From positions 32,001-96,000 of IMG/VR virus record IMGVR_UViG_3300036818_000127: DNA of 64,000 nt. One strand, given 5' to 3'. Shown here one piece after another: positions 1-60,821 of this stretch. The DNA is from a virus. A model generated the notes under the pieces. The model was not told the origin of the DNA and ran no database searches. It saw nothing but the letters and a program-made list of their open reading frames with translations. A program made the position numbers and the translations under genes. The first letter of the stretch is position 1. Every line of letters starts with the position of its first letter.

Positions 1-17
1 CTTCCATTTCTACCCTT

Positions 18-461
18 GTTGCATAAAAGGTATATGGTCGTATCTCTGTCGCATTTATTGTTGCATCCAAAACCATTATCAGTGTTGCATCCTGTGGTGA
101 CTGTTGCATCCCACTAAGTCCTCTGCATGTTGCAGTCAATATTACCTTGTTGTTATTGTCACATTTGCAAGCTGCATTATCCCTAACAGGAGAGATTTTA
201 TAGTGCTGCATGTCATTTCTGGTTGCATTATAGTTGCATGTACTACTTGCCTCCAGTTGCAGTTTCCCCTGGGTTATACTAGTTGCATTGTGTCACCTGA
301 TGGGATTGTGTTGCATTAATCCCCTCAAGGGACTATCACGTCAAGAAACCCGTTGCAGTCTTGTGTTGCATAGAAAGGAGTAGCAGTCTGTATAGTTGCA
401 GTATCCTCTAATTTCTGACAGTTGCATCAATCCCTAGTTGAGATTAGGATAGCATTGTTAG
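18..461 (-). repeat. tract of about 18 same-strand GTTGCA(T/G)-like motifs, irregularly spaced; decayed extension of the adjacent array
   Basis: Motifs at 18,48,60,84,103,129,171,205,222,233,256,282,310,352,365,380,395,421. Confidence 0.7.
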
Positions 462-890
462 GTTACAATTATGCCCTTTGCTAGTGCTGTTGCAATCATT
501 GGGCTAGATAACTTTCACTAGAGGGATAGAGCAAAGTTACAATCATTCCCCTAGCAGCTAGATCTCGCAACCTGTTTACACCTTCACCGATTGCTGTCAG
601 TCGCTCGCAGTTGCAATTATTCTTCCAGCAGCCAGCCATTGCAATGGAAGTACATTATATTGCAATTATTCCTCCAGCGGCCAGCCATTGCAATTAGAGA
701 AGAATAAAGGAGATGAGATGGGAAACAGGTTGCAATCATCCCCCAGCGACTAGACCCTTGCAACATGAGTTAGATGAGGGTGAGCAGCTGGCCTGGGCTC
801 GTTGCAATCATCCCCCCTGGCAACTATGCCATTGCAATCAGCATATTCTATATGATTTACAATATCATACCCATTGCAATCATTCCCCTA
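462..890 (-). CRISPR. degenerate CRISPR-like array, 35-38 nt repeats (e.g. GTTGCAATCATCCCCCAGCGACTAGACCCTTGCAAC on +)
   Basis: Repeats at 462-496, 536-571, 610-645, 659-694, 729-764, 801-838 and a half repeat from 873; spacers 39,38,13,34,36,34 nt; minus-strand 3' end GATTGCAAC. Confidence 0.75.
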
Positions 891-1092
891 TATATTTTAA
901 AAGAGCCAGCCTCAAGGGAGCCACCGCGAAGCGAGTACCCGCTAGGGTTTTGTGGCGATGTTCCTGCCAGAAAGAGTCAAGTCCCCTATACCCCTAAGAG
1001 TAATCTTCGGATCATACGGCCATTCCCCAGCAGCTCGGCCTGTAACTACTGAAGCGAACTTCGACGAGCCGAGACAATCCGAAGATTGCAAA
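873..1092 (-). ncRNA. putative structured scaffold/tracr-like RNA abutting the array
   Basis: 11-bp stem 1002-1012/1077-1087, CTCGGC/GCCGAG, GAAG-UUCG-CUUC hairpin on minus, GCCAC/GTGGC. Confidence 0.5.
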
Positions 1093-1097
1093 GCAGA

Positions 1098-1316
1098 TTA
1101 TAACACAGGTTTTCTGAGAAGTGTATCCCTTTTCTCCAATGCTTCCTTGAACATTTTCCATGCCCAACTCCGGCCAGATCCACGACTCCAGATGTCACAG
1201 GTATATGGCCTCCGGTCTCGAAGTATGGCCGTTACTCTATCGAAGTCTGCCTTCGTAAATTCGACGCATTCCTCAACATACTCATACTGCTCATTGCTGG
1301 TATTCTGCGTGTCCAT
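1098..1316 (-). CDS. hypothetical protein
   Basis: ORF track 1098..1421; start trimmed to MDTQ. Confidence 0.5.
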   Translation of the reverse strand: MDTQNTSNEQYEYVEECVEFTKADFDRVTAILRDRRPYTCDIWSRGSGRSWAWKMFKEALEKRDTLLRKPVL

Positions 1317-5677: not shown

Positions 5678-6403
5678 TTAATTCTCACGGATAGCAATCC
5701 AGCCAGCGAAATTAAGATAGCGCCAGAAACAGTCAATCTGCTGGAAACCAGCCATATGCAATAGTTCCTCATTCCACCTTGCTGTCACAGGCACAAGCAC
5801 ACCCTCTAATGAAAGCCTCTTTCGCTCAATAGCCTCTTGGGAGTAGCCATTTGTTGCCTTGAGAGCATAGTAATTCTTGACGAGCAGGGTATCAATCTCG
5901 GCGCTTGATCCCAGAAGCTTCTCAACAAGGATAAACACGCCGCCAGGGACAGTGTGCTTGAAGACCTCGCGGATGATCCGCTGGCGATACTCTATAGGAA
6001 CAAATTGAAGAGTCAGAATAGAAAGCGTGACACTTGCCTTCTCTGGCGGGTAGTCCTTCCGAAGATCAAGGGAACGGATAGAGGCATGTGGTTCTATCCA
6101 CCCATTTGAAAACCGATCACTTGCACACTGCAACATCGGCTGACTTACCTCAATCCCGACACATGTCGTCTGGTGCCAGAACTTCTCAACAAATGGAGCT
6201 AGGGCATCGCCGCGAGCACACCCAAGGTCAACAATAGCCGTATGGGGTTTCACGAAGGGAGAAGCAATATCGAACACAGATTGCCGCATCACCTCATATT
6301 GAGGGATAGAGCGAACAAGCATGTCCTCAAAGACATCTGTGACACTCTGGTCAAAATCCCATTTGGCATCTGTAGGCATGTGCCCTATACTATCTTTTGT
6401 CAT
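5678..6403 (-). CDS. cmoA: carboxy-S-adenosylmethionine synthase (CmoA-like)
   Basis: WDFDQSVTDVFEDML.RSIPQY, DLGC, TLQF, EK and NGYS.E.I..KR.SLE all match CmoA motifs, including the key Arg. Confidence 0.88.
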   Translation of the reverse strand: MTKDSIGHMPTDAKWDFDQSVTDVFEDMLVRSIPQYEVMRQSVFDIASPFVKPHTAIVDLGCARGDALAPFVEKFWHQTTCVGIEVSQPMLQCASDRFSNGWIEPHASIRSLDLRKDYPPEKASVTLSILTLQFVPIEYRQRIIREVFKHTVPGGVFILVEKLLGSSAEIDTLLVKNYYALKATNGYSQEAIERKRLSLEGVLVPVTARWNEELLHMAGFQQIDCFWRYLNFAGWIAIREN

Positions 6404-6410
6404 CGCTCTT

Positions 6411-6545
6411 TCCTACTTCAATTACTCTCTACTATTTGTAGAAAACTCTACAACTTTTTGGTTATGTACCCCAGGAAAGGGCCATACAACTAAGAGAGGA
6501 TAGATTACCCTACCTGACCATAAAACTTCCAGAATGGCACTACAG
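6411..6545 (-). repeat. dispersed intergenic repeat, copy A
   Basis: Similar to 33547-33756 and 48052-48262. Confidence 0.8.
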
Positions 6546-6938
6546 TGGCACCTGGTCCAATTGCTGGTTATACCCGTTTCTTGGTGATCTATTTGCTCTC
6601 ATAATGAGATGAGCCTCAATATCATCTGTTTGGAAGATCTCTTTTGCAAAGGCAATTGCATCCTCCTGGCTAAATTCCTTGCAAGAGCAAATATCAATAT
6701 CAACCTCGCCGTGCTCCGGCCACGTATGCAGACTAACATGACTCTCTGCAATGATGACGAATCCTGATAGACCGGAATCTGCATAGCTCGGTGTTTGGAT
6801 ATTGTAGAGGGATGCTGGGCTTACCTTCTCCATCCCGATGCGAGAGGGATACTCATCAAGGATGCGGCGCATAAGTAATTCGTTACTCAGGATAGCTCGA
6901 TCAATATCGTACATTTCTAACATTAAGTGGATGAGCAT
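6540..6938 (-). CDS. speD: pyruvoyl-dependent SAM decarboxylase family protein (SpeD-like)
   Basis: GLSGFVIIAESHVSLHTWPE self-cleavage motif. Confidence 0.85.
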   Translation of the reverse strand: MLIHLMLEMYDIDRAILSNELLMRRILDEYPSRIGMEKVSPASLYNIQTPSYADSGLSGFVIIAESHVSLHTWPEHGEVDIDICSCKEFSQEDAIAFAKEIFQTDDIEAHLIMRANRSPRNGYNQQLDQVPL

Positions 6939-6953
6939 GCTAGTTCTTTCCTC

Positions 6954-7466
6954 CTATAAAGATCCTGTCTTGAGTGCGTCGATTTTCCTCTGAAGATACC
7001 AGGAGAAAAACCCTTCATTTCTTTTTTGGAATTCAGGATCTTTCCAGGCATTGCCATCAATAGTGCCCCGACATTCAGGACTCCCACATTGACACTGCAT
7101 GCTCCAGACCCCATCATATCTCTCTGTTGTTTCATAATCGAAACATAGCTCTTCGCCTGCCAGGATATCACGGCGGGCAATGAATACCGTTTGGCCTTGC
7201 ACGCCGATATTCGGAGAGCAGCTATGATTCACCCCATAGGATTTCAGGTGGGGCACCCCGAGATAGACGTTATCACAAACATGATAGAAATTATCTGAGA
7301 TGGAGCGAGGAAAAGCATCAGTTTCCTCTTCAGTGATAATGTCCCCACCATATACAAAAGCGATTTCACCTTCTGGAATGAACTCTGTAGCAAAGAGGCC
7401 GATACCCTGGACAGGGCTGTTCTTGAATTCGCTCTTTGGCGAAAAGTAGGAATAATATTTATGCAT
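6954..7466 (-). CDS. SET/post-SET domain methyltransferase
   Basis: GIGLFA, NHSCSPN, GEELCFDY, CQCGSPECRG. Confidence 0.9.
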   Translation of the reverse strand: MHKYYSYFSPKSEFKNSPVQGIGLFATEFIPEGEIAFVYGGDIITEEETDAFPRSISDNFYHVCDNVYLGVPHLKSYGVNHSCSPNIGVQGQTVFIARRDILAGEELCFDYETTERYDGVWSMQCQCGSPECRGTIDGNAWKDPEFQKRNEGFFSWYLQRKIDALKTGSL

Positions 7467-8319
7467 TAGGAACTCCTTGGTGGATCTCACTAAAAAGACG
7501 GCGGTAAATGACAATAATTGCCTTCGCATGGCTTACATTGTACTTTGACTGAAGAAGCGTGTCATGCCACTCACGAAGTCCGCTGTTGATTTGCAATGGA
7601 CTATTTGTTCGGTACCATTTCCCACATTTCCAGAACTCAGGGAAGGCGCGGATAGCTAATCCCTTCTGGACAGGGATGTGGATATCATAGGATTTGCAAG
7701 AAAGAAGAAAGTCTATGAGGTCAGGATTGCGAAAGGAATCATAGATCTGTACCCCACATGAAAGTGCTGTTTTTATACAACTTATATCTGAACCACCTTC
7801 CCAAGCAAGCCATTCACGCCGCTTCTGCGTAAACCATTCCTCCCCATGTTCCTTGATACCTACAGAAAAAAAGCGAGATACGCCCCATAAGTCATCAGCA
7901 TTCATTGCGAATGATGCATCACGGTACCCATCATTAAAAGCTGCTTCTGCAAGATAGAGGAATGGATGCGCACATTGTATATGTATTTTTCTGAGTCTAC
8001 AGACAATTGGCAGCACACGGCGAATATCGGCAATGAGTGTTTCCTCATTCTGAGGGATTGAGACAATCGTATGGGGGATATCAAAGTACTTGCAGACAGA
8101 TCGAGAGACCTTTGCATCACTACTCTCACGGTTCCCTACCTGGAAGGTATAGCAGTGTGGTGGCTTATATCCGAGCGAGAGAATACCAGCAAGGTTTGTC
8201 ATACTATCAGTTCCGCCGCTTAGCATCAGCGGCATAGACACATAGGGCTTGATTGCCTCTTGGAACAGAGATCGGAATGTCTGCGCCTGCTGCTCTTGCT
8301 GTCTGCTCACTGCTCGCAT
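7459..8319 (-). CDS. asparagine synthetase-like ATP-dependent amide ligase without glutaminase domain
   Basis: PP-loop LSGGTDS, NADDLWG; RBS AGGAGAGG before MRAV. Confidence 0.75.
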   Translation of the reverse strand: MRAVSRQQEQQAQTFRSLFQEAIKPYVSMPLMLSGGTDSMTNLAGILSLGYKPPHCYTFQVGNRESSDAKVSRSVCKYFDIPHTIVSIPQNEETLIADIRRVLPIVCRLRKIHIQCAHPFLYLAEAAFNDGYRDASFAMNADDLWGVSRFFSVGIKEHGEEWFTQKRREWLAWEGGSDISCIKTALSCGVQIYDSFRNPDLIDFLLSCKSYDIHIPVQKGLAIRAFPEFWKCGKWYRTNSPLQINSGLREWHDTLLQSKYNVSHAKAIIVIYRRLFSEIHQGVPNA

Positions 8320-9749
8320 TGATCTAGTATCCTCTCCTGTATCGTCTTGGCTACCTTTTCCATCATCACAGGAGGCACTGCACGGCCAAGTCGCTCCCAT
8401 TGCTGTGAATAGGTCCCTGTCAGAATAAAATCATCTGGAAATGCACAGATCCTCTTCAGTTCAGCAATAGAAAATTTCCGCTTCTCAGTTGGATGGGTAA
8501 CGCCAGCAGCAGCAGCAGGTGACCATGCAGTGCCAGCAGTCTGGGTGACAGTAGGGCATGGGCCATCAAGGGGTGCTCGCTGTAGAGAGAAGTATTTTTG
8601 ACTCTGTTCTCCAGGCTTTAATTTATCCCATTCCCTGCCGATTGCAAACTTGCTAATATCAGATTCAGGCTCAACAATCTGTTCCTCTATCCAGTGTGTT
8701 CCTACTGATCCAGATAAAACTGTTGGGCTCGGCTGGTCAGTAATATCGCTGCCATTACCAAAGGCCCCGCGATCATCACGGATAGCACGGATAGGGACAT
8801 GCTGTTCCTCGATATACCATTGCTGCATTGTCGTCAAGGTCGGAGAGGGAGTATCTGTAATGTCCCCCTTGCTATATTGAGGTTGGCCTTTTGCATCATG
8901 GATCGCACGTACAGGAATAGCTTCAATAAGGCTAGAAGGGGAAAGCCCATTTCCAAATGCTGGACTTGCGCCAATAGTGCCGCTAGGTGAGGTGGATGTA
9001 TCTCTCCATCCCTCTGTCCCGAATACTGGTCCAGCGCCTTGTCTGATGATCCAGGGCAATGCCTCACGTACTGTATAGGTATAAGGAAGTGGAGCCGGAT
9101 GGGCTGGCCTTATCTTGTACTGCTCAACAAGATCATTTCTCACACCGACAAAGATAAGGCGTTGGCGCATCTGGGGGACACCGAGCCACTGCGCATCAAG
9201 GATCTTGGCCTCAACAGTATAGCCACATGATTTTAGTTCCTTCAGTATCTCTAGGAAGTAGCCTTTAGCTGTCCCCTTCACAAGCCCGCTCACATTCTCA
9301 GCAACAAATACCTTTGGCTGTAATCCCTTGAGAAGTCGTACATATTCAAAGAAGAGATCATCAACCCGCTGGCGCGTATCACTGTAATCCTTGACTTTGC
9401 CCCAGCTTGCCTCACGCTTTCCAGCAGTTGAGAATGATGCACAGGGAGGACTTCCTTCAAAGACATCAAGCTCACCCTGATTTAGATGTATAGCTTTTAA
9501 AATCTCATCTGGTTTTATTTTACGGATATCACGCGCATCAAGAATAGAATGAGGATGATTAGCTTTATAGGTATCTCGTGCTGCTGGTATAAATTCATTT
9601 GCCCAAAGAATACGGTACCCTGCAAGACGGAATCCAAGGCAACTTCCGCCACACCCTGAGAATGTACTTACAACATTACGGCCATTCCATGGTATTTGTT
9701 CTATTTCCCTCATTGAAGGGACTCTGTAAGGAGGCTTGTCTTTTATCAT
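8307..9749 (-). CDS. C5-cytosine DNA methyltransferase homolog, probable carboxymethyltransferase
   Basis: FSGCGG, GSPPC, ENV, QxRxR; motif X is GRAVPP (N to R); ATGA overlap with the ParB-like gene. Confidence 0.9.
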   Translation of the reverse strand: MIKDKPPYRVPSMREIEQIPWNGRNVVSTFSGCGGSCLGFRLAGYRILWANEFIPAARDTYKANHPHSILDARDIRKIKPDEILKAIHLNQGELDVFEGSPPCASFSTAGKREASWGKVKDYSDTRQRVDDLFFEYVRLLKGLQPKVFVAENVSGLVKGTAKGYFLEILKELKSCGYTVEAKILDAQWLGVPQMRQRLIFVGVRNDLVEQYKIRPAHPAPLPYTYTVREALPWIIRQGAGPVFGTEGWRDTSTSPSGTIGASPAFGNGLSPSSLIEAIPVRAIHDAKGQPQYSKGDITDTPSPTLTTMQQWYIEEQHVPIRAIRDDRGAFGNGSDITDQPSPTVLSGSVGTHWIEEQIVEPESDISKFAIGREWDKLKPGEQSQKYFSLQRAPLDGPCPTVTQTAGTAWSPAAAAGVTHPTEKRKFSIAELKRICAFPDDFILTGTYSQQWERLGRAVPPVMMEKVAKTIQERILDQCEQ

Positions 9750-10342
9750 TTCGGCTTTCCAGACCATTGATAGCTGCATTTTGGGCAACAGTATTCTGTA
9801 TCGATACCTTCATCATAGCTCTTGAAATCATCTGGTGATTCCCTGCCATCATCCTCCTCATCTAGATAGGCATCCCCGAGCTTTTCTAACATCTGGCGGA
9901 GTGCTTCCCCGTCCGTCCCGAGACTTGCAAGATCAAACCCCGCCTGCTCCTGTTCCTCTAAGAGCTGGGCCAGGGACAATTCATCTGGTTCAGCTTTATT
10001 CCCTAAGTGATTGTCGCTAACCATATAGCCTTTGGCGTCTAATATGCTCCACTCTGGAGGTGCGATAACAACAGCCCAGCTATTGAGGTGAGCATACTTT
10101 GCAGGGTTTTCTGCATACAGTTCTTTTGCTGCCTCAGTGATTCCATGACCAGCAAGGATAATGTACTGTTCCTCGCCGACAGCCTGCTGGACGACAATGG
10201 GGCGCACCTGCTTGTACCTCATAAGTGAGGCTTTTAGGTCTGCAATTTGAGCAGGTGGATGTTGATTGTAGTTGGCCGGATGACCTTCAAGGCTATCAAG
10301 GGTTACTCTTTTGAATTGGACCTCATTGCTTGTTGCAGGCAT
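9746..10342 (-). CDS. ParB/Srx N-terminal domain protein of the kind found in phage modification clusters
   Basis: HPANYNQH..QI..L.ASL, ILAGHG, SDN; C-terminal CPKC. Confidence 0.8.
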   Translation of the reverse strand: MPATSNEVQFKRVTLDSLEGHPANYNQHPPAQIADLKASLMRYKQVRPIVVQQAVGEEQYIILAGHGITEAAKELYAENPAKYAHLNSWAVVIAPPEWSILDAKGYMVSDNHLGNKAEPDELSLAQLLEEQEQAGFDLASLGTDGEALRQMLEKLGDAYLDEEDDGRESPDDFKSYDEGIDTEYCCPKCSYQWSGKPK

Positions 10343-10446
10343 GAATGTCTCCATTAAAACAAAAAGGACACTTTTCAACCTCATAGTATGAGGGAAAAGC
10401 GCCTGATGCATATTGCATTGTCTAAGCGTTATGTATTCTGTTTTTG

Positions 10447-10710
10447 TTAGTCTTGAGGCTGAGAAACTGCTACTCCGTTATACAAACCATACCTTTTACT
10501 TGGTCTTTTGTGTTTGTATGCTCTATTCGTTATGGAGTACGTCTTCGTACCCAGCCTCATCCCTTGGCCGTCATTCTGGAACTTAAATTCAACACGGCCA
10601 TGACCGCCCTCTCGCTCAATGAGGCGTTTACTGCTCTGGAGGTAGGCATACATCTCCAGGTCCTCATCGTTTGGTCCAGTCGGCAAGATTGAACTATTCT
10701 CTGAATCCAT
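10447..10710 (-). CDS. hypothetical protein
   Basis: ORF with RBS. Confidence 0.5.
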   Translation of the reverse strand: MDSENSSILPTGPNDEDLEMYAYLQSSKRLIEREGGHGRVEFKFQNDGQGMRLGTKTYSITNRAYKHKRPSKRYGLYNGVAVSQPQD

Positions 10711-10929
10711 TGTATCCTATTCTTCTATGCTATAGGGACAATTATTCTAATAACAATGTAACATACGTTCGATATATAAATCAAGTGGACAAGCGGACAT
10801 GACACAAAAGAAGGAAGGGGTTTACCTCTAGATACTGAAATGTGTTGAAGAAATCAGAACTACGAGGTAGTTAGGAAGTACTCGGCCACGTTTATAGTAG
10901 AATCCCCTCCTGTCATCATCATAACATAT

Positions 10930-12159
10930 CTATAGTCTTTTGTTCATCAGCAAATGGACCCTACTCTTTTCTGCTACAATTTTGGGTATATGTTTTTCTA
11001 GAGAGAGTACAGTGCCGTGCTTCTGGAAAATATATTCTGAAACATCCATGTGCTCAAATACATAGGGCTTAAATACTGTATCCGATAAGTCCTCAACAAA
11101 ATAAGCCTTACTAGGCAAGTTCTCAATAAGAAGAGTAAATAATGCAGCATAGACACCAACAATCACCTGCATGCATGTTCCATTTGTGCCATTGGCAGCA
11201 AAGTTGAGTGCTGAATTAAAGTAGTATACTTTTTTATCATCATAGTCCAAGATGACACCAATATTATCTGAACCATTGATAGGGATGAGTATATTATCAC
11301 CATGAACAAGATCTGCATGACTGACATGATGTTTCCTGCTATAGATGTCATCCATATAATCCATTGTCTTCATGTGGATGGCATAGATGAATTGAGAGGG
11401 GATATCATACTTTTGTGCAATAGATACATTTTCATCATGCAGGATAATAAGTCCTTGGGGATAGGCATCCAGTTTCATAATAGGAGAGAGAAGAGGCTCC
11501 ATATCCATTCTATGTTTCAGTCCATTAGGGAAAAGTTCTCTAAGCTGATCTCTTCCGAGCATTATCCCGCTAGGGCTGCTGACTGCCTCGACTAGGAACT
11601 CATGAATAGACCATGTGATCGTAGGCATCCATTTTTCCCGAGCAGTTGACGTATCATATTCAAAATGGATAACCTCTCGCGGGACCCCATATTTTTCAAT
11701 GCCATACTGCACCCACATATTCACAACCCCTGGATTCATTCCAGTACAGAGAATATGAGGGGCACCTGTAAGTACCTCTTTCCTATCATAGATATCACGA
11801 ATAAGCTCTAAGCAGGATTGGTCATCATTATTCATGCATGCATTGACATAAGAGACATGAGCCTTATTTGTTGCTTCTAGGATAGGAAGTGAATCAGCAT
11901 CAGTCAGGTCCAGAACGATATCAATATGATACCTTTCGAGAATAGCAACGTAGTCAGCATAATCTGAGGTAAGTTCTTTTTGTATAAATGTGTAATCTAG
12001 CTTCTTGTGGTCAAGGCGTGGATTAACAAGAACACCATTAGACATATCAAGAAGAACGACTGTACCAAACATCTCTCTATAGAAAGGCAGATAGAGAAGG
12101 ACTGCATTAGAGATACTTCCAGAAGCACCAAGCAGCAGTAGGTTTTTTATTCTACTCAA
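10930..12159 (-). CDS. homospermidine synthase / saccharopine dehydrogenase family protein
   Basis: N-terminal Rossmann LLLGASG, GMNPGVVN, EYDT, TWS..EF..E, HDE. Confidence 0.75.
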   Translation of the reverse strand: MSRIKNLLLLGASGSISNAVLLYLPFYREMFGTVVLLDMSNGVLVNPRLDHKKLDYTFIQKELTSDYADYVAILERYHIDIVLDLTDADSLPILEATNKAHVSYVNACMNNDDQSCLELIRDIYDRKEVLTGAPHILCTGMNPGVVNMWVQYGIEKYGVPREVIHFEYDTSTAREKWMPTITWSIHEFLVEAVSSPSGIMLGRDQLRELFPNGLKHRMDMEPLLSPIMKLDAYPQGLIILHDENVSIAQKYDIPSQFIYAIHMKTMDYMDDIYSRKHHVSHADLVHGDNILIPINGSDNIGVILDYDDKKVYYFNSALNFAANGTNGTCMQVIVGVYAALFTLLIENLPSKAYFVEDLSDTVFKPYVFEHMDVSEYIFQKHGTVLSLEKHIPKIVAEKSRVHLLMNKRL

Positions 12160-12526: not shown

Positions 12527-13549
12527 ATGGAGGTACTCATGGAATATGAAGTTATCCCTGTTCATTCCACTCTTGACCAAGTTGGGCAAAGTGAGAATGT
12601 CATCTCAGCAAACAATGCTTTTAAGGACTATCATGACAGGATAGACCCAAATACTTTTGCACGTCAAAGTTATGACATGGCACTCTTTTGCGCATTTATT
12701 GCAAGCAAGAAAGTGCTAGTAGACAAAGATGAGCTATTATCCAGTCCCAGAGCATGGTTAGATATCACTCACGGAATGATTGACAGCTTTGCAAAATGGA
12801 TGATAGAAGAAGGCTTTGCTATAGGCTCAATAAATATACGTTTATCTACTGTAAAGACGTACTTCAAGCTTGCTTCTAGAGCAGGCTATATTCAACCTGA
12901 TGAAGCAGTAAAAGCCCATTTTGTAAAAGGGTACAGCTACAAGCAAGGGCTAAACGTTGATGAACGAAGGGAGATAAAGCGCAAGGATAAGAGCAAGAAA
13001 GCTGAGCCCATACCATTAACAAAAGAGCAAACGGATCTACTTAAAAAGCATCCAAATACACCACAAGGGCGACGTGATGCCTTGCTTATGTGCTTGCTCT
13101 TAGATCATGGTTTACGATGTGGGGAGGTTGCAGACCTTACACGTGCCAATATTCAACTTACCTCTGGAATACTTACCTTTCATAGGGAGAAAACCAAAGA
13201 AGAGGATAAGCATAAACTCACGAATGATACATTGGTTGCCCTCATGAGGTACTTTGAAGTCTACCATCCAACTGGCAAGCTCATAGCTGGCAGCCATAGG
13301 AGCGGCCAACTTATGGGGGAAATGAGCAGAAGAGCCATAACTAAGCGTGTACAAGTCTTAGGGGAGCAGATACTTGGGATAAAGAATCTCTCAGCGCATG
13401 ATTGCAGACACGCTTGGGTGGAAGCTGCCATACGAGGGGGAACCAATATCAAGACGCTCCAACAAGCGGGTGGCTGGTCAAGTCCCGCTATGCCACTGAG
13501 ATACGCCGCAAAGGCTGAAATTTCAAATGAAGGAGTAAAACTAGGATGA
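12527..13549 (+). CDS. tyrosine recombinase/integrase
   Basis: HGLRCGE, K, HDCRH, GW, catalytic Tyr in PLRY. Confidence 0.92.
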   Translation: MEVLMEYEVIPVHSTLDQVGQSENVISANNAFKDYHDRIDPNTFARQSYDMALFCAFIASKKVLVDKDELLSSPRAWLDITHGMIDSFAKWMIEEGFAIGSINIRLSTVKTYFKLASRAGYIQPDEAVKAHFVKGYSYKQGLNVDERREIKRKDKSKKAEPIPLTKEQTDLLKKHPNTPQGRRDALLMCLLLDHGLRCGEVADLTRANIQLTSGILTFHREKTKEEDKHKLTNDTLVALMRYFEVYHPTGKLIAGSHRSGQLMGEMSRRAITKRVQVLGEQILGIKNLSAHDCRHAWVEAAIRGGTNIKTLQQAGGWSSPAMPLRYAAKAEISNEGVKLG

Positions 13550-13887
13550 ACCAACCAAATGATGACCGCTTCAAGAAGATAGAGGAACGCATTGACAAAC
13601 TGGAACAAGAGAATACAAAGAGCATAGAAGCTGAGCGGCTCCTGCTCCGGCTATCAAGGATGCATGACGTGAACGTAAAGGAACTGCTCGCCCTTTGCGG
13701 AAGGATCGATCTTGATACAGGAGATGCACGCGAGCGATTTGACGTGATTGAGAGGACTCTTTTCGATCATGGGAATAAGCTTGACAGAATAGAGGAACAC
13801 CAGTTCAAGCAAGATGACAGGCTTGGCAGGATAGAGGAATTGCTTGTACAGTTGGTTACTAGACTACCACAGCCAGAGGGGGAATAG
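13546..13887 (+). CDS. coiled-coil hypothetical protein
   Basis: Heptad-like repeats, ATGA overlap. Confidence 0.6.
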   Translation: MNQPNDDRFKKIEERIDKLEQENTKSIEAERLLLRLSRMHDVNVKELLALCGRIDLDTGDARERFDVIERTLFDHGNKLDRIEEHQFKQDDRLGRIEELLVQLVTRLPQPEGE

Positions 13888-14005
13888 GGAGATTGACAGA
13901 CTATCTAGTCTAAAATATACTTTTATTATCAAACAAAAGTACAGGTCCACCTAGCTCTTGTTTTGCCGCCAGAGAGAAGGCGGCAAATTTCTTGAAAGGA
14001 CAGCA

Positions 14006-14512
14006 ATGATTGATGAATTCCTAGAAAATGCTAAAAATGGAGAGCATGAGGCGCTGAGTGAGATCTATCGGCATTTCTTTCCTAAGATATTTCATTTTAT
14101 CCTAAAAAGGGTGGGTTTTCATGAAACAGCAGAAGATCTCACCTCAGAGGTTTTTATTCAAATGCTCAAACATATCCGTCTATTTAAATCAGAAAATGCT
14201 ATGGCGTTTCACAAGTGGCTTTATCAGATTGCGAGGGCAGTGATAGCAGAGCATTACAGAAAAAGAAAAGATATACTCTCACTTGAACAGAATGATGAGA
14301 GCATCTTCGATGAAATCGCCCAGCATGAGGCATGGCTGGATCTTGTCCAAGGAATCAACAAGCTCCAAGACTCGCACCGTCAACTCATTATCGACCGCTT
14401 TATTTTAGGGTATAATCAGGCAACCATCGCAAGGCTTACAGGAAAGAAAGAGGGTACAATTAGAGTAACTGAATATCGTGCAACACAAAATCTACGAAAA
14501 TTGATACGTTGA
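14006..14512 (+). CDS. ECF-family sigma-70 factor
   Basis: AEDLTSEVF, WLYQIAR, region 4 HTH. Confidence 0.9.
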   Translation: MIDEFLENAKNGEHEALSEIYRHFFPKIFHFILKRVGFHETAEDLTSEVFIQMLKHIRLFKSENAMAFHKWLYQIARAVIAEHYRKRKDILSLEQNDESIFDEIAQHEAWLDLVQGINKLQDSHRQLIIDRFILGYNQATIARLTGKKEGTIRVTEYRATQNLRKLIR

Positions 14513-22736: not shown

Positions 22737-23378
22737 TTAAGCCCCTTTACGGTTCGCTTGCACTCTCTTATTTAGTTCCGCTATAAGCTTTACCATATCC
22801 CCAAAAGACAATCCTTCTAAATCAACATCAGGTAAATTAAGCATCTGATGCAGCTTTTTTACGCTCGCAATCTGTTGAACCGTAGCTGGTGCTTCTGGAT
22901 CATAGGAGGGCTTGCGTTCTTGACGTTGAACAGGAGCATCGGCCAGCCGCTCGCCTTCCTCTAACTCATCGCCGCAAAACTGAGTTCCATAGCCTAGCCC
23001 GACTAGAGCCCTGCCGATGGCACCTGTCTCTGCCTTCTCTAGGTAGTCAGGGAAGCAGGCCGCATTCTCGGTTTTAGTGCCTGTTGAGCTACCTCCCTTG
23101 CCGTCGGTAACTATTGCCCTAAAGACTGCAACTCCACGGGCTTTCTTGATAACCTTGTCATAGCGGCGCTTCTCATCATTCCAGACACTAACCTCAGTCT
23201 CACACTCTTCCGAGCGATTGAGATCGAGTAACTCAGTCGTGATTGTGCCCTCTGGACATTGCTCTCTAAACCATACCAATCGCCACGCAACGGGGAGGTA
23301 GTCCTTGGGTCCCTGCTGAGACTTGAGCTGAATGATATGAGAATTAGGGTTGAACACTTTATCAATGGTAGTATTCAT
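22737..23378 (-). CDS. Sak/Rad52-like single-strand annealing protein
   Basis: YLPVAWRLVWFRE, EKAETGAIGRAL. Confidence 0.7.
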   Translation of the reverse strand: MNTTIDKVFNPNSHIIQLKSQQGPKDYLPVAWRLVWFREQCPEGTITTELLDLNRSEECETEVSVWNDEKRRYDKVIKKARGVAVFRAIVTDGKGGSSTGTKTENAACFPDYLEKAETGAIGRALVGLGYGTQFCGDELEEGERLADAPVQRQERKPSYDPEAPATVQQIASVKKLHQMLNLPDVDLEGLSFGDMVKLIAELNKRVQANRKGA

Positions 23379-49802: not shown

Positions 49803-49813
49803 ATGCATCAAAA

Positions 49814-50072
49814 ATTGCAGTACCCTCAAGGCGGGTCGATGGATTGCAACTCGACAGGAATGCGCGGCCAGGTCTCTAGCATGATCAATTGCAGTACCCT
49901 CAAGGCGGGTCGATGGATTGCAACTGGAATATCCTCTCCAGTAGATATCAACATACATCGGATTGCAGTACCCTCAAGGCGGGTCGATGGATTGCAACTT
50001 AGAAAGTCATTCGAGAGACACTTCCCTGATTTTGTATTGCAGTACCCTCAAGGCGGGTCGATGGATTGCAAC
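49814..50072 (-). CRISPR. CRISPR mini-array: 4 identical 37-nt repeats (ATTGCAGTACCCTCAAGGCGGGTCGATGGATTGCAAC on +), 3 spacers of 37 nt, no cas genes
   Basis: Repeats at 49814, 49888, 49962, 50036; leader-like sequence on the right. Confidence 0.97.
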
Positions 50073-50758: not shown

Positions 50759-51017
50759 TACCCTCAGATGGATCGATGGAAATGAAAAGTATTAGTCACC
50801 TAATTCAGTTGCAGTATCCTCAGATGGATCGAAAAGTAAATCTGAACTATCGACTAAAGTAGTTGCAGTACCCTACCAACGGGTCGAATTGGTTAAAGTA
50901 GAGAGTATACCCCTATACAGTTGCAGTACCCTCTAACGGGTCTAAGTGCAGAAAGCGAGTATCAAACATATGAATACCGTTGCAGTATCCTAGCTCGGAT
51001 CAACAGAGCTAGGATAC
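50759..51017 (-). CRISPR. array of truncated, divergent CRISPR repeats (Racr/crlRNA-like)
   Basis: GTTGCAGTA(C/T)CC units at 50808, 50862, 50920, 50979 and a partial unit at 50759; period 54-59. Confidence 0.8.
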
Positions 51018-60201: not shown

Positions 60202-60411
60202 ATGAAGTGCCACATATGCCTGCGAGAGCAAGGCATCATCCCATCTCAACATGACAATGACCAGCACACCCTATGTGATGAGCATAGAAATGAGGCAGCA
60301 TCAACCTTTTATGTCGGCAAGCTTGCAAGAGAGCAGGCAGGTCGCTTATATGCAGGACATCACGATCTGAATAGGCTACTTCGATTGGTGGGTAGACAGT
60401 CAGGGACCTGA
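60202..60411 (+). CDS. small Zn-binding protein; last codons supplied by the inserted element
   Basis: CHIC...CDEH. Confidence 0.5.
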   Translation: MKCHICLREQGIIPSQHDNDQHTLCDEHRNEAASTFYVGKLAREQAGRLYAGHHDLNRLLRLVGRQSGT

Positions 60412-60821
60412 TCCCTTAAAAGGGATGGGCTTGTAGAGATGGGGGTAGTTTTTGCCCGTCTTCTCTCTAGCTTCACCTGACCAGACCCAGCCAGGGCTGT
60501 TCCTAGAAGGCTCATAGAGAGCGGGAAACAGCTATCGGGCTACGTTAGAGGCGAAATTAGGTACCATAGGATGCGAGGGCCAGTCCGATGCTCTACGGTT
60601 GCAGGTTAAACAGGTTTACGAGGGTTAGTGCCAGTGCTTGCAACGACAAACCGCTTTCTAACTTCGTCGAGGCCCCCATTACCTGGGAAACCAGTGGGGT
60701 TTAGCCGTTCCGTCATAAAACGGCTCCCCGCAAGGGGATTACTCCTAAACTAATCCAGCCTGCGGGCTACTTCTTTCCTCCCAACCACTAAAAGGGAATG
60801 GGTTTCCAGAAAGGATAACTG
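60399..60821 (+). mobile_element. non-autonomous IS200/IS605 element carrying a standalone IscB-type omega-RNA (HEARO-like)
   Basis: GTCAGG...CCTGACCAGAC closing stem, CTACGTT, GGATGC..GCCAGTCC, GGTTAAACAG, GTCGAGG..CATTACC; terminal hairpin shared with 23379-23807. Confidence 0.85.

Follow-up and report, generated by a model that had tools for sequence, protein, structure and literature searches.

Genomic setting of the locus

The analysed stretch of 64,000 bp, referred to here as the window, covers bases 32001–96000 of a virus record with a total length of 109,417 bp (IMGVR_UViG_3300036818_000127). The two ends of the record overlap by 127 bp, which suggests a circular assembly path. Terminase, portal, PolA, primase, integrase and ECF-like sigma factor genes were identified in this phage. 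As the named homologs of its proteins come from Ktedonobacteraceae, Tengunoibacter or Dictyobacter, the host probably belongs to the Ktedonobacteria.

A tyrosine integrase (340 aa) and, after it, an ECF-like sigma factor of 184 aa that has regions 2 and 4 are encoded at window 12527–14512 on the plus strand. The sigma gene, beside the integrase at 13958–14512, is the only one in the phage with both regions; the phage is probably temperate and would bring its own sigma factor. Consecutive minus-strand genes of the modification type (window 5678–12159) encode a CmoA-like methyltransferase, an Asn-synthase/QueC-like ligase, a C5 cytosine methylase and a saccharopine-dehydrogenase-like protein, a set that hints at DNA hypermodification. 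Rfam gave a HEARO (IscB omega-RNA) match of 102.9 bits at window 60399–60682 on the plus strand. Downstream of it, an intact ORF of IscB size was absent and just fragments of 41–92 aa were found before 61658; it is possibly a stand-alone or decayed IscB element.

The following features were identified at the left end of the window, where all the surrounding protein genes lie on the minus strand and the cassette is placed between terS-side genes and terL:

1–461, minus strand: mini-repeat field of about 40 units, about 25 of them inside the window and the others in the 572 nt beyond its left end
462–872, minus strand: array body, with repeats 837–801, 764–729, 694–659, 645–610, 571–536 and 496–462
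462–496 (35 nt), 536–571, 610–645, 659–694, 729–764 (36 nt each) and 801–837 (37 nt), minus strand: full repeats
872–838 (35 nt), 800–765 (36 nt), 728–695 (34 nt), 658–646 (13 nt), 609–572 (38 nt) and 535–497 (39 nt), minus strand: spacers
873–888, minus strand: handle-only first unit GGGGAAUGAUUGCAAU, 17 nt past the scaffold, matching the handle consensus at 15 of 16 positions
905–1092, minus strand: scaffold (tracrRNA-like) RNA, based on paralogy, a four-locus alignment and covariation
1097–1105, minus strand: extended −10 element TGtTATAAT, read from the sequence, with a putative start at about 1089–1092

Anatomy and strand of the array

The repeats at 462–890 constitute a real CRISPR-type guide array. 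Six divergent repeats of 35–38 nt and one half repeat had been predicted there, and all were recovered, the six with lengths of 35–37 nt and the half repeat being the handle-only unit at 873–888. Within the 64 kb, the 15-mer TTGCAATNATNCCCC was matched 10 times when up to 2 mismatches were allowed, compared to 2.2 expected matches, and 7 of these 10 fall in 462–890; none of 100 shuffles reached 10. The repeats, of about 36–37 nt, alternate with unique spacers of similar size, and the gaps from left to right are 39, 38, 13, 34, 36 and 35 nt. The predicted spacing of 34–39 nt therefore holds for five gaps but not for the 13-nt one, which separates two near-identical repeats (610–645 and 659–694, 94% identical).

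Both ends of the repeats carry a TTGCAA-like sequence, and a terminal stem of 6–8 bp closes every copy. Aligned on the minus strand, the repeats start with RTTGCAA, continue with a variable interior and end in a GGGGRAUGAUUGCAAY handle. Pairwise identity reaches 0.78 for the 5′ end and 0.79 for the 3′ handle versus only 0.38 for the interior, so that the repeats are not near-identical within the array and the original prediction of conserved TGCAA-like ends with internal variation is borne out. The last repeat of the array is irregular. Tandem Repeats Finder called nothing over the array, which fits the divergence that had been described.

Divergent repeats, a single 13-nt spacer and an irregular last repeat are also what a decaying relic could look like, namely a non-working duplicate of the effector-linked scaffold and array (described below) in which divergence is ordinary erosion. 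We consider this unlikely. Erosion would strike all positions, whereas identity here is confined to the repeat ends, a pattern unlike uniform erosion and the one expected if selection acts only on the handle, the part that remains in a type V crRNA, and on the hairpin-closing 5′ RTTGCAA.

The array reads best on the minus strand, behind its own scaffold RNA, since the scaffold folds better there and its G·U pairs and cUUCGg loop exist on that strand only. Thus, the reading strand is opposite to the one originally assumed, as indicated by the scaffold fold, the covariation, a conserved promoter and the minus-strand orientation of the protein genes around the cassette, and the plus-strand reading was rejected. 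We also rejected promoters internal to the repeats, which would start RNAs after the handle: promoter-like pairs (TTGCAA-17-AATAAT) were counted 5 times against 2.9 in shuffles, and are most simply a by-product of the resemblance of TTGCAA to TTGACA.

Scaffold RNA and promoter

Window 914–1103 has a paralog on the opposite strand at genome 106826–107091 (75–84% identical), which directly adjoins the only Cas12f-like gene of the phage. The scaffold alignment was made from four loci: the window cassette, the effector-linked cassette of the same phage (genome cluster C) and two related soil-metagenome contigs, L008 and L010. Its RNAalifold consensus fold reached −31.6 kcal/mol on the minus strand versus −17.5 kcal/mol on the other. 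The consensus comprises 36 pairs, of which 19 are compensatory (double changes), and 96.5% of the cells are paired. Not one of 500 shuffles reached any of these measures, while slid partners paired in 33–54%. About 30 G·U cells would become A·C on the opposite strand, and the 5′ hairpin is closed by a cUUCGg tetraloop. The repeats had been taken for tracr-dependent ones, and a tracr-like scaffold RNA with folding backed by covariation does adjoin the array.

When folded alone, the window scaffold was no better than shuffles (z = −0.8). No Rfam family matched the scaffold, and its core was absent from the bacterial genomes of a 185,579-species collection. The helices of the window scaffold are nevertheless kept by compensatory changes relative to the paralog, which speaks against a relic.

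At three loci (L008, L010 and genome cluster C), a sigma-70 promoter matching the consensus at 11 of 12 positions (TTGACA-17-TATACT) was detected immediately before the scaffold, on the same strand as the scaffold and opposite to the effector gene. The window scaffold lacks a good −35 and was not called by the promoter scan. A promoter weaker than at the three other loci is a point in favour of decay.

An unpaired conserved loop reads GUAGUUACA in the window copy and GUAGUUGCA in the other three copies. The loop GGUAGUUGCA is complementary to the handle UGCAAC, and we infer an anti-repeat pairing between the two. The window loop, GUUACA, fits two UUGUAAC handles and mismatches (C·A) the five UUGCAAY handles, and this G-to-A change could likewise be counted as decay. 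TGTAAC handles were not enriched in the window cassette (p = 0.55), nor was the covariation of the loop A/G with the handle TGTAAC/TGCAAC significant. Since the loop mismatches the majority of the handles, the window guides might depend on the scaffold of the other cassette; alternatively, the mismatch could be accommodated. Positions 546–561 of the repeat 571–536 recur almost unchanged in the scaffold as the segment AGCUGCUGGGGAAUG, which suggests a common ancestry of repeat and scaffold.

The adjoining mini-repeat field

Past the last full repeat, the array gives way to a field of much shorter units, each consisting of (A)UGCAAC and roughly 13–36 nt of unique sequence, typically about 15 nt. 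Viewed on the plus strand, these are about 40 copies of GTTGCA[TG] spaced by 11–69 nt, all on one strand, from window position 460 to 572 nt beyond the window start. Handles of intermediate length are few (e.g. GGGAUUGAUGCAAC at 421–434), and conservation across the field fades to (A)(A)UGCAAC. Over the 1.5-kb field TGCAAC occurs 31 times on one strand versus once on the other, a strand-specific retention that erosion of a relic would not be expected to leave.

Fields of the same kind with other spacers lie upstream of the scaffold in genome cluster C (about 70–90 units, of which a GTTGCA[TG] count gave about 75), L008 and L010. Between the two fields of the phage and across phages, 2–4 mini-spacers per field pair are conserved in register, compared to 0.05–0.45 expected; one of them matches at 14 of 14 positions between the window cassette and L008. 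Their order between fields is not kept. This in-register conservation argues for selection of at least some units as units. Protein-binding iterons, Chi-like sites or an origin were considered for the GTTGCAT field and set aside, as it is always co-oriented with the array and the scaffold and its motif complements the scaffold loop.

The Cas12f-like effector and its cassette

No effector is encoded in the window, as had been noted, and a distal Cas12f/TnpB-like protein had been proposed to serve the array. The search for tnpB/cas12 in the rest of the record revealed a single gene of this kind, at genome 105024–106715, encoding a 563-aa protein with a Cas12f1-like TNB domain and a Cas12f fold. 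It lies about 35 kb from the array around the circular map and 72 kb from it on the linear record. We take this protein to be the putative partner of the window cassette, so that a host effector, the other option proposed, need not be invoked.

By sequence, the protein is closest to Cas12f, which PADLOC matched at 1.6e-21. With NCBIfam models it scored 69 bits for Cas12f2 (cut-off 450) and 59 bits for CasX (cut-off 200), both far below cut-off, while a sequence search of PDB gave CasX at 1.7e-19 and Cas12f at 7.8e-18. Its AlphaFold2 model (pLDDT 85) superposed over the full length on AsCas12f with a TM of 0.65–0.69 (target-normalised) and on PlmCasX with a TM of 0.59 (query-normalised). The N-terminal part of about 300 aa is unrelated by sequence to Cas12f.

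Two RuvC residues were identified, D346 (RuvC-I) and E432 (RuvC-II), and an intact D-E-D triad was not found. The column of the RuvC-III Asp is occupied by G521 in the phage protein, by Y in its three closest relatives and by D in 18 of 22 family members; the nearby D519 is not conserved among close relatives. Its nuclease activity is probably impaired or lost. With Gly in place of the usual Asp of RuvC-III, the effector most likely binds a target and does not cut it.

The effector-linked cassette (genome 105024–109290 and 1–604) also contains a conserved HTH_17 neighbour, a divergent consensus promoter and a scaffold. Its scaffold carries a 78-nt insertion and extra hairpins, and its field comprises about 70–90 (A)TGCAAC units over 2.8 kb, spanning the record ends. 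The neighbour of the effector is this HTH_17 protein and not a sigma factor, the ECF-like sigma gene being about 59 kb away. Searches across the 109-kb genome matched neither Cas1 (PF01867) nor Cas2 (PF09827). A TnpB omega-RNA of the IS200/IS605 type, which would overlap or follow the tnpB 3′ end within a mobile element present in several copies, was considered and rejected: the scaffold precedes the effector gene and diverges from it, the protein is single-copy and the synteny is fixed in related phages.

Related contigs

No relatives were found in IMG/VR, GTDB genomes or INPHARED by protein, scaffold pattern or DNA. Homologs of the effector were found in 8 soil-metagenome contigs, the only ones detected. 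Five of these (L007–L010 and L013) encode effectors 60–67% identical to that of the phage (tblastn) and share the layout and flanking genes of genome cluster C. The shared gene order is a homolog of a 229-aa ORF, a GTTGCA field of 40–60 units, a non-coding stretch of about 200–400 nt, the effector and the HTH protein. Layout and gene order are conserved in contigs with effectors of 63–67% identity. Three related phage contigs are laid out as mini-repeat field, array (where present), scaffold, divergent promoter and effector. That the effector-linked cassettes of the relatives show the same "degenerate" style is a further argument against reading the window cassette as a relic.

L008 and its near-duplicates L009 and L013 carry seven slightly differing 37-nt repeats with a regular period of 73–75 nt. 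More distant homologs are found in L014 (28% identity), with a canonical array of 37-nt repeats, and in L012 (34% identity), with degenerate repeats of about 17 nt and spacers of about 20 nt. The spacers of L008 and L014 did not match the phage genome. In L012 (VFSW01096607.1, 2400–3200), the effector homolog is followed by a GC-rich structured stretch on the same strand and then by about 25 GGGCGYGUGGGAUGAGG-like repeats. Hence, short-repeat arrays recur in the protein family of the effector with a different handle.

Spacer origin and possible targets

Only one of the five long spacers has a traceable origin, through a match in the phage itself:

765–800, minus strand: spacer 2, with 29 of 36 ungapped identities to genome 54934–54969
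22934–22969, plus strand: the self match of spacer 2, inside ORF 22737–23378 (minus strand, 213 aa, SSB-like, PF27148 / phrog_27776)

The match of 29/36 compares with a maximum of 25 over 400 shuffles and a binomial expectation of 9e-7. The SSB-like ORF belongs to a large family of phage genes with 3,419 homologs, and its distant homologs in the records of Thermus phage P23-45 are annotated as ssDNA-binding protein. In the gene frame, spacer 2 reads DELDEGEQLAWAP where the gene of the phage reads DELEEGERLADAP, and 4 of the 7 mismatches fall at third codon positions. Because the mismatches are codon-patterned, we infer that spacer 2 derives from a homologous phage SSB-like gene and not from regulatory DNA.

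At this site the family motif is DELDEG[DE]R[LI]ADAP, and two residues that do not otherwise vary in the family are changed in spacer 2 (R to Q, D to W). Three consecutive mismatches occupy positions 5–7, the would-be handle-proximal seed. Both departures would fit two readings, an unseen divergent rival phage as source, or drift or escape from self-targeting. Spacer 2 may have decayed instead of fitting a target that still exists, and its changes at invariant residues of the source family are counted among the points for a relic.

Screening of the other spacers, long or mini, against the phage genome by exact words and Hamming distance gave chance-level matches. The array had no match in INPHARED and PLSDB, and spacer 2 had no exact match in IMG/VR. 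For four of the five long spacers and for all mini-spacers, no target was detected in the phage, INPHARED or PLSDB, a result that decay would also explain. Two spacers had been described as resembling regulatory DNA; they have no matching target in the phage, and the spacer that could be traced (800–765) comes from the middle of a coding sequence and not from a promoter or RBS. The suggested comparison of spacers with phage genomes was productive for spacer 2 only, whose hit is to the SSB-like gene of its own phage, and yielded nothing in INPHARED or PLSDB. At least one guide goes back to an SSB-like gene in a related phage, and so the guides are probably aimed at rival phages, or at foreign or host DNA of another kind, and not at the promoters of the phage.

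The original prediction also proposed a guide set for gene regulation. On this reading, the guides would lead a Cas12f-like protein that binds without cutting to promoters or genes and tune the expression of the phage or its host; the match of spacer 2 to the SSB-like gene would then be a regulatory site. The missing RuvC-III Asp makes a mode of action by binding or regulation plausible, and that part of the proposal stands. Short guides of about 15 nt favour binding over cleavage in Cas9 and Cas12, and guides of this length are found in the adjoining field. The 29/36 self match is in line with the proposal, as is the regulation of transcription by nuclease-dead Cas12f homologs (PMC13472631). 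On the other hand, the remaining spacers, long or mini, match the phage no better than chance, the self match lies mid-gene with mismatches at positions 5–7, where Cas12-type R-loops start, and its codon-patterned mismatches suggest a homolog as origin and not a tuned self site. We regard self or host-gene regulation as an improbable function of these guides.

Comparison with known systems

The system most resembles type V-F1 (Cas14a / Un1Cas12f1, AsCas12f). The predicted likeness to type V repeats is supported by the termini, which are those of Un1Cas12f1 (GTTGCA...ATGCAAC, then the guide), as taken from the sgRNA in bioRxiv 10.1101/2022.10.20.513037. A repeat of 36–37 nt starting with GTTGCA and ending in (A/T)TGCAAC, a guide presumably 3′ of it, a miniature effector with the Cas12f fold and a long, structured helper RNA whose gene adjoins the array are common to both. 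Unlike in type V-F1, the phage repeats are non-uniform, with just a handle as the first unit and with further units whose handles measure 6–7 nt. The effector also differs, scoring below the family cut-offs, with some 300 unrelated N-terminal residues and without the canonical RuvC-III Asp; adaptation genes are absent, and the carrier is a phage with two cassettes of the system.

Two further repeat clusters were observed in the window. At 49813–50072, four identical 37-nt repeats with a 74-nt period (ATTGCAGTACCC...GGATTGCAAC on the plus strand) enclose three unique 37-nt spacers without a match in the phage. This array is canonical-looking, with V-F-like termini, and has no scaffold or effector nearby. 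At 50803–51000, four to five shortened units with a period of 56–59 nt represent a truncated form of the 49813 repeat; on the minus strand, they show a co-varying 4-bp stem (ACCC/GGGT vs ATCC/GGAT) followed by ACUGCAAC.

Nuclease-dead derivatives of Cas12f and TnpB for transcription control have been described as dCas12f-sigmaE (PMC13472631) and TldR (bioRxiv 10.1101/2023.11.30.569447), and a scenario of minimisation to a half-DR plus tracr places a half repeat close to a tracr-like RNA (PMC10691335). The phage system is like these derivatives in its impaired RuvC, the half repeat near a tracr-like RNA, the multiple guides and the lack of an adaptation module. It differs from dCas12f-sigmaE in that an HTH_17 gene, and no ECF sigma gene, is beside the effector, and from the dead derivatives in general in having tandem guides behind one scaffold instead of duplicated whole omega-RNAs, and in being carried by a phage.

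Cas12r of Thermus Lalka phages (bioRxiv 10.64898/2026.04.20.719267) and the mini-arrays of viruses (PMC11656645) are likewise phage-encoded and without adaptation genes, with spacers directed against other mobile elements. Those systems have uniform repeats and active nucleases, in contrast to the handle-sized repeats and the probably inactive nuclease of the present phage.

CRISPR repeat-like RNAs, or RNA anti-CRISPRs (bioRxiv 10.1101/2023.03.03.530964), share with the present units their degenerate or stand-alone form and partial self matches. By analogy, the units could be decoys that mimic host Cas12f repeats and soak up the host effector or tracrRNA; the array is phage-borne, cas1 and cas2 are absent, and the many handle-only units could titrate an anti-repeat. 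Such a role is highly improbable. RNA anti-CRISPRs of this kind mimic the repeats of a host without a cognate effector in the phage, whereas the present array comprises about 7 + 40 units and comes with a scaffold and a cognate effector from the same phage. A matching effector and two scaffolds with a complementary loop are thus supplied by the phage itself, the spacers are of normal length and one is of phage-gene origin, and no bacterial genome of the 185,579-species collection has the scaffold core. In the papers that could be searched, we found the related concepts (half-DR minimisation, dCas12f-sigmaE, phage Cas12r) and not the present architecture.

Proposed model

Taken with its paralogy and the layout of its relatives, the array at 462–890 is probably the full-repeat part of a second, effector-less guide cassette of the phage Cas12f-like system, an account that we hold with reasonable confidence. 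The analysis showed the anatomy and strand of the array, the structure and paralogy of the scaffold, the layout kept by related phages, the effector fold and the source of spacer 2; the steps that follow are predictions. Transcription would proceed from right to left from the extended −10 at about 1100, giving a putative transcript with a scaffold of about 190 nt, the handle-only repeat, six repeat-spacer units and about 40 minimal units, each of (A)UGCAAC and roughly 15 nt. In the expressed and processed RNA, the repeat 3′ handle UGCAAC would pair with the scaffold loop GUAGUUGCA, and the sequence 3′ of the handle would serve as the guide, as in Cas12f. The protein partner would be the only Cas12f-like protein of the phage (563 aa), whose gene adjoins the paralogous cassette at genome 105–109 kb; with Gly at RuvC-III, it would bind the target and most likely leave it uncut.

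A bolder proposal goes with this account, and we offer it tentatively, at rather less than even probability. One transcript may record a stepwise reduction of the repeat, from the 36-nt repeat to a 16-nt handle and then to a 6–7-nt handle, leading to a compact multiplex DNA-binding system. The reduction could be possible if the scaffold supplies the rest of the repeat in cis, as the likeness of its shared segment to repeat positions 546–561 would allow. Together, the two cassettes would provide more than 100 very short guides for a non-cutting Cas12f-like protein. With these, the temperate phage would silence genes of its host or of rival phages, or perhaps switch genes on with its own sigma factor.

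Implications

An array that standard CRISPR finders would reject thus appears as a working-looking part of an RNA-guided system, in which ordinary Cas12f repeats are linked to handles of 6–7 nt. If these handles are functional, they would set a new lower bound for the guide repeat of type V and could serve as a template for multiplex arrays with very densely packed guides. The locus also adds a phage-borne, probably nuclease-dead relative of Cas12f with an unusually large guide repertoire, and spacer 2 gives a first clue to the targets of this repertoire, pointing to a conserved replication (SSB-like) gene of related phages. If the stepwise reduction of the repeat is true, the phage would carry a natural, extremely compact multiplex DNA-binding system.
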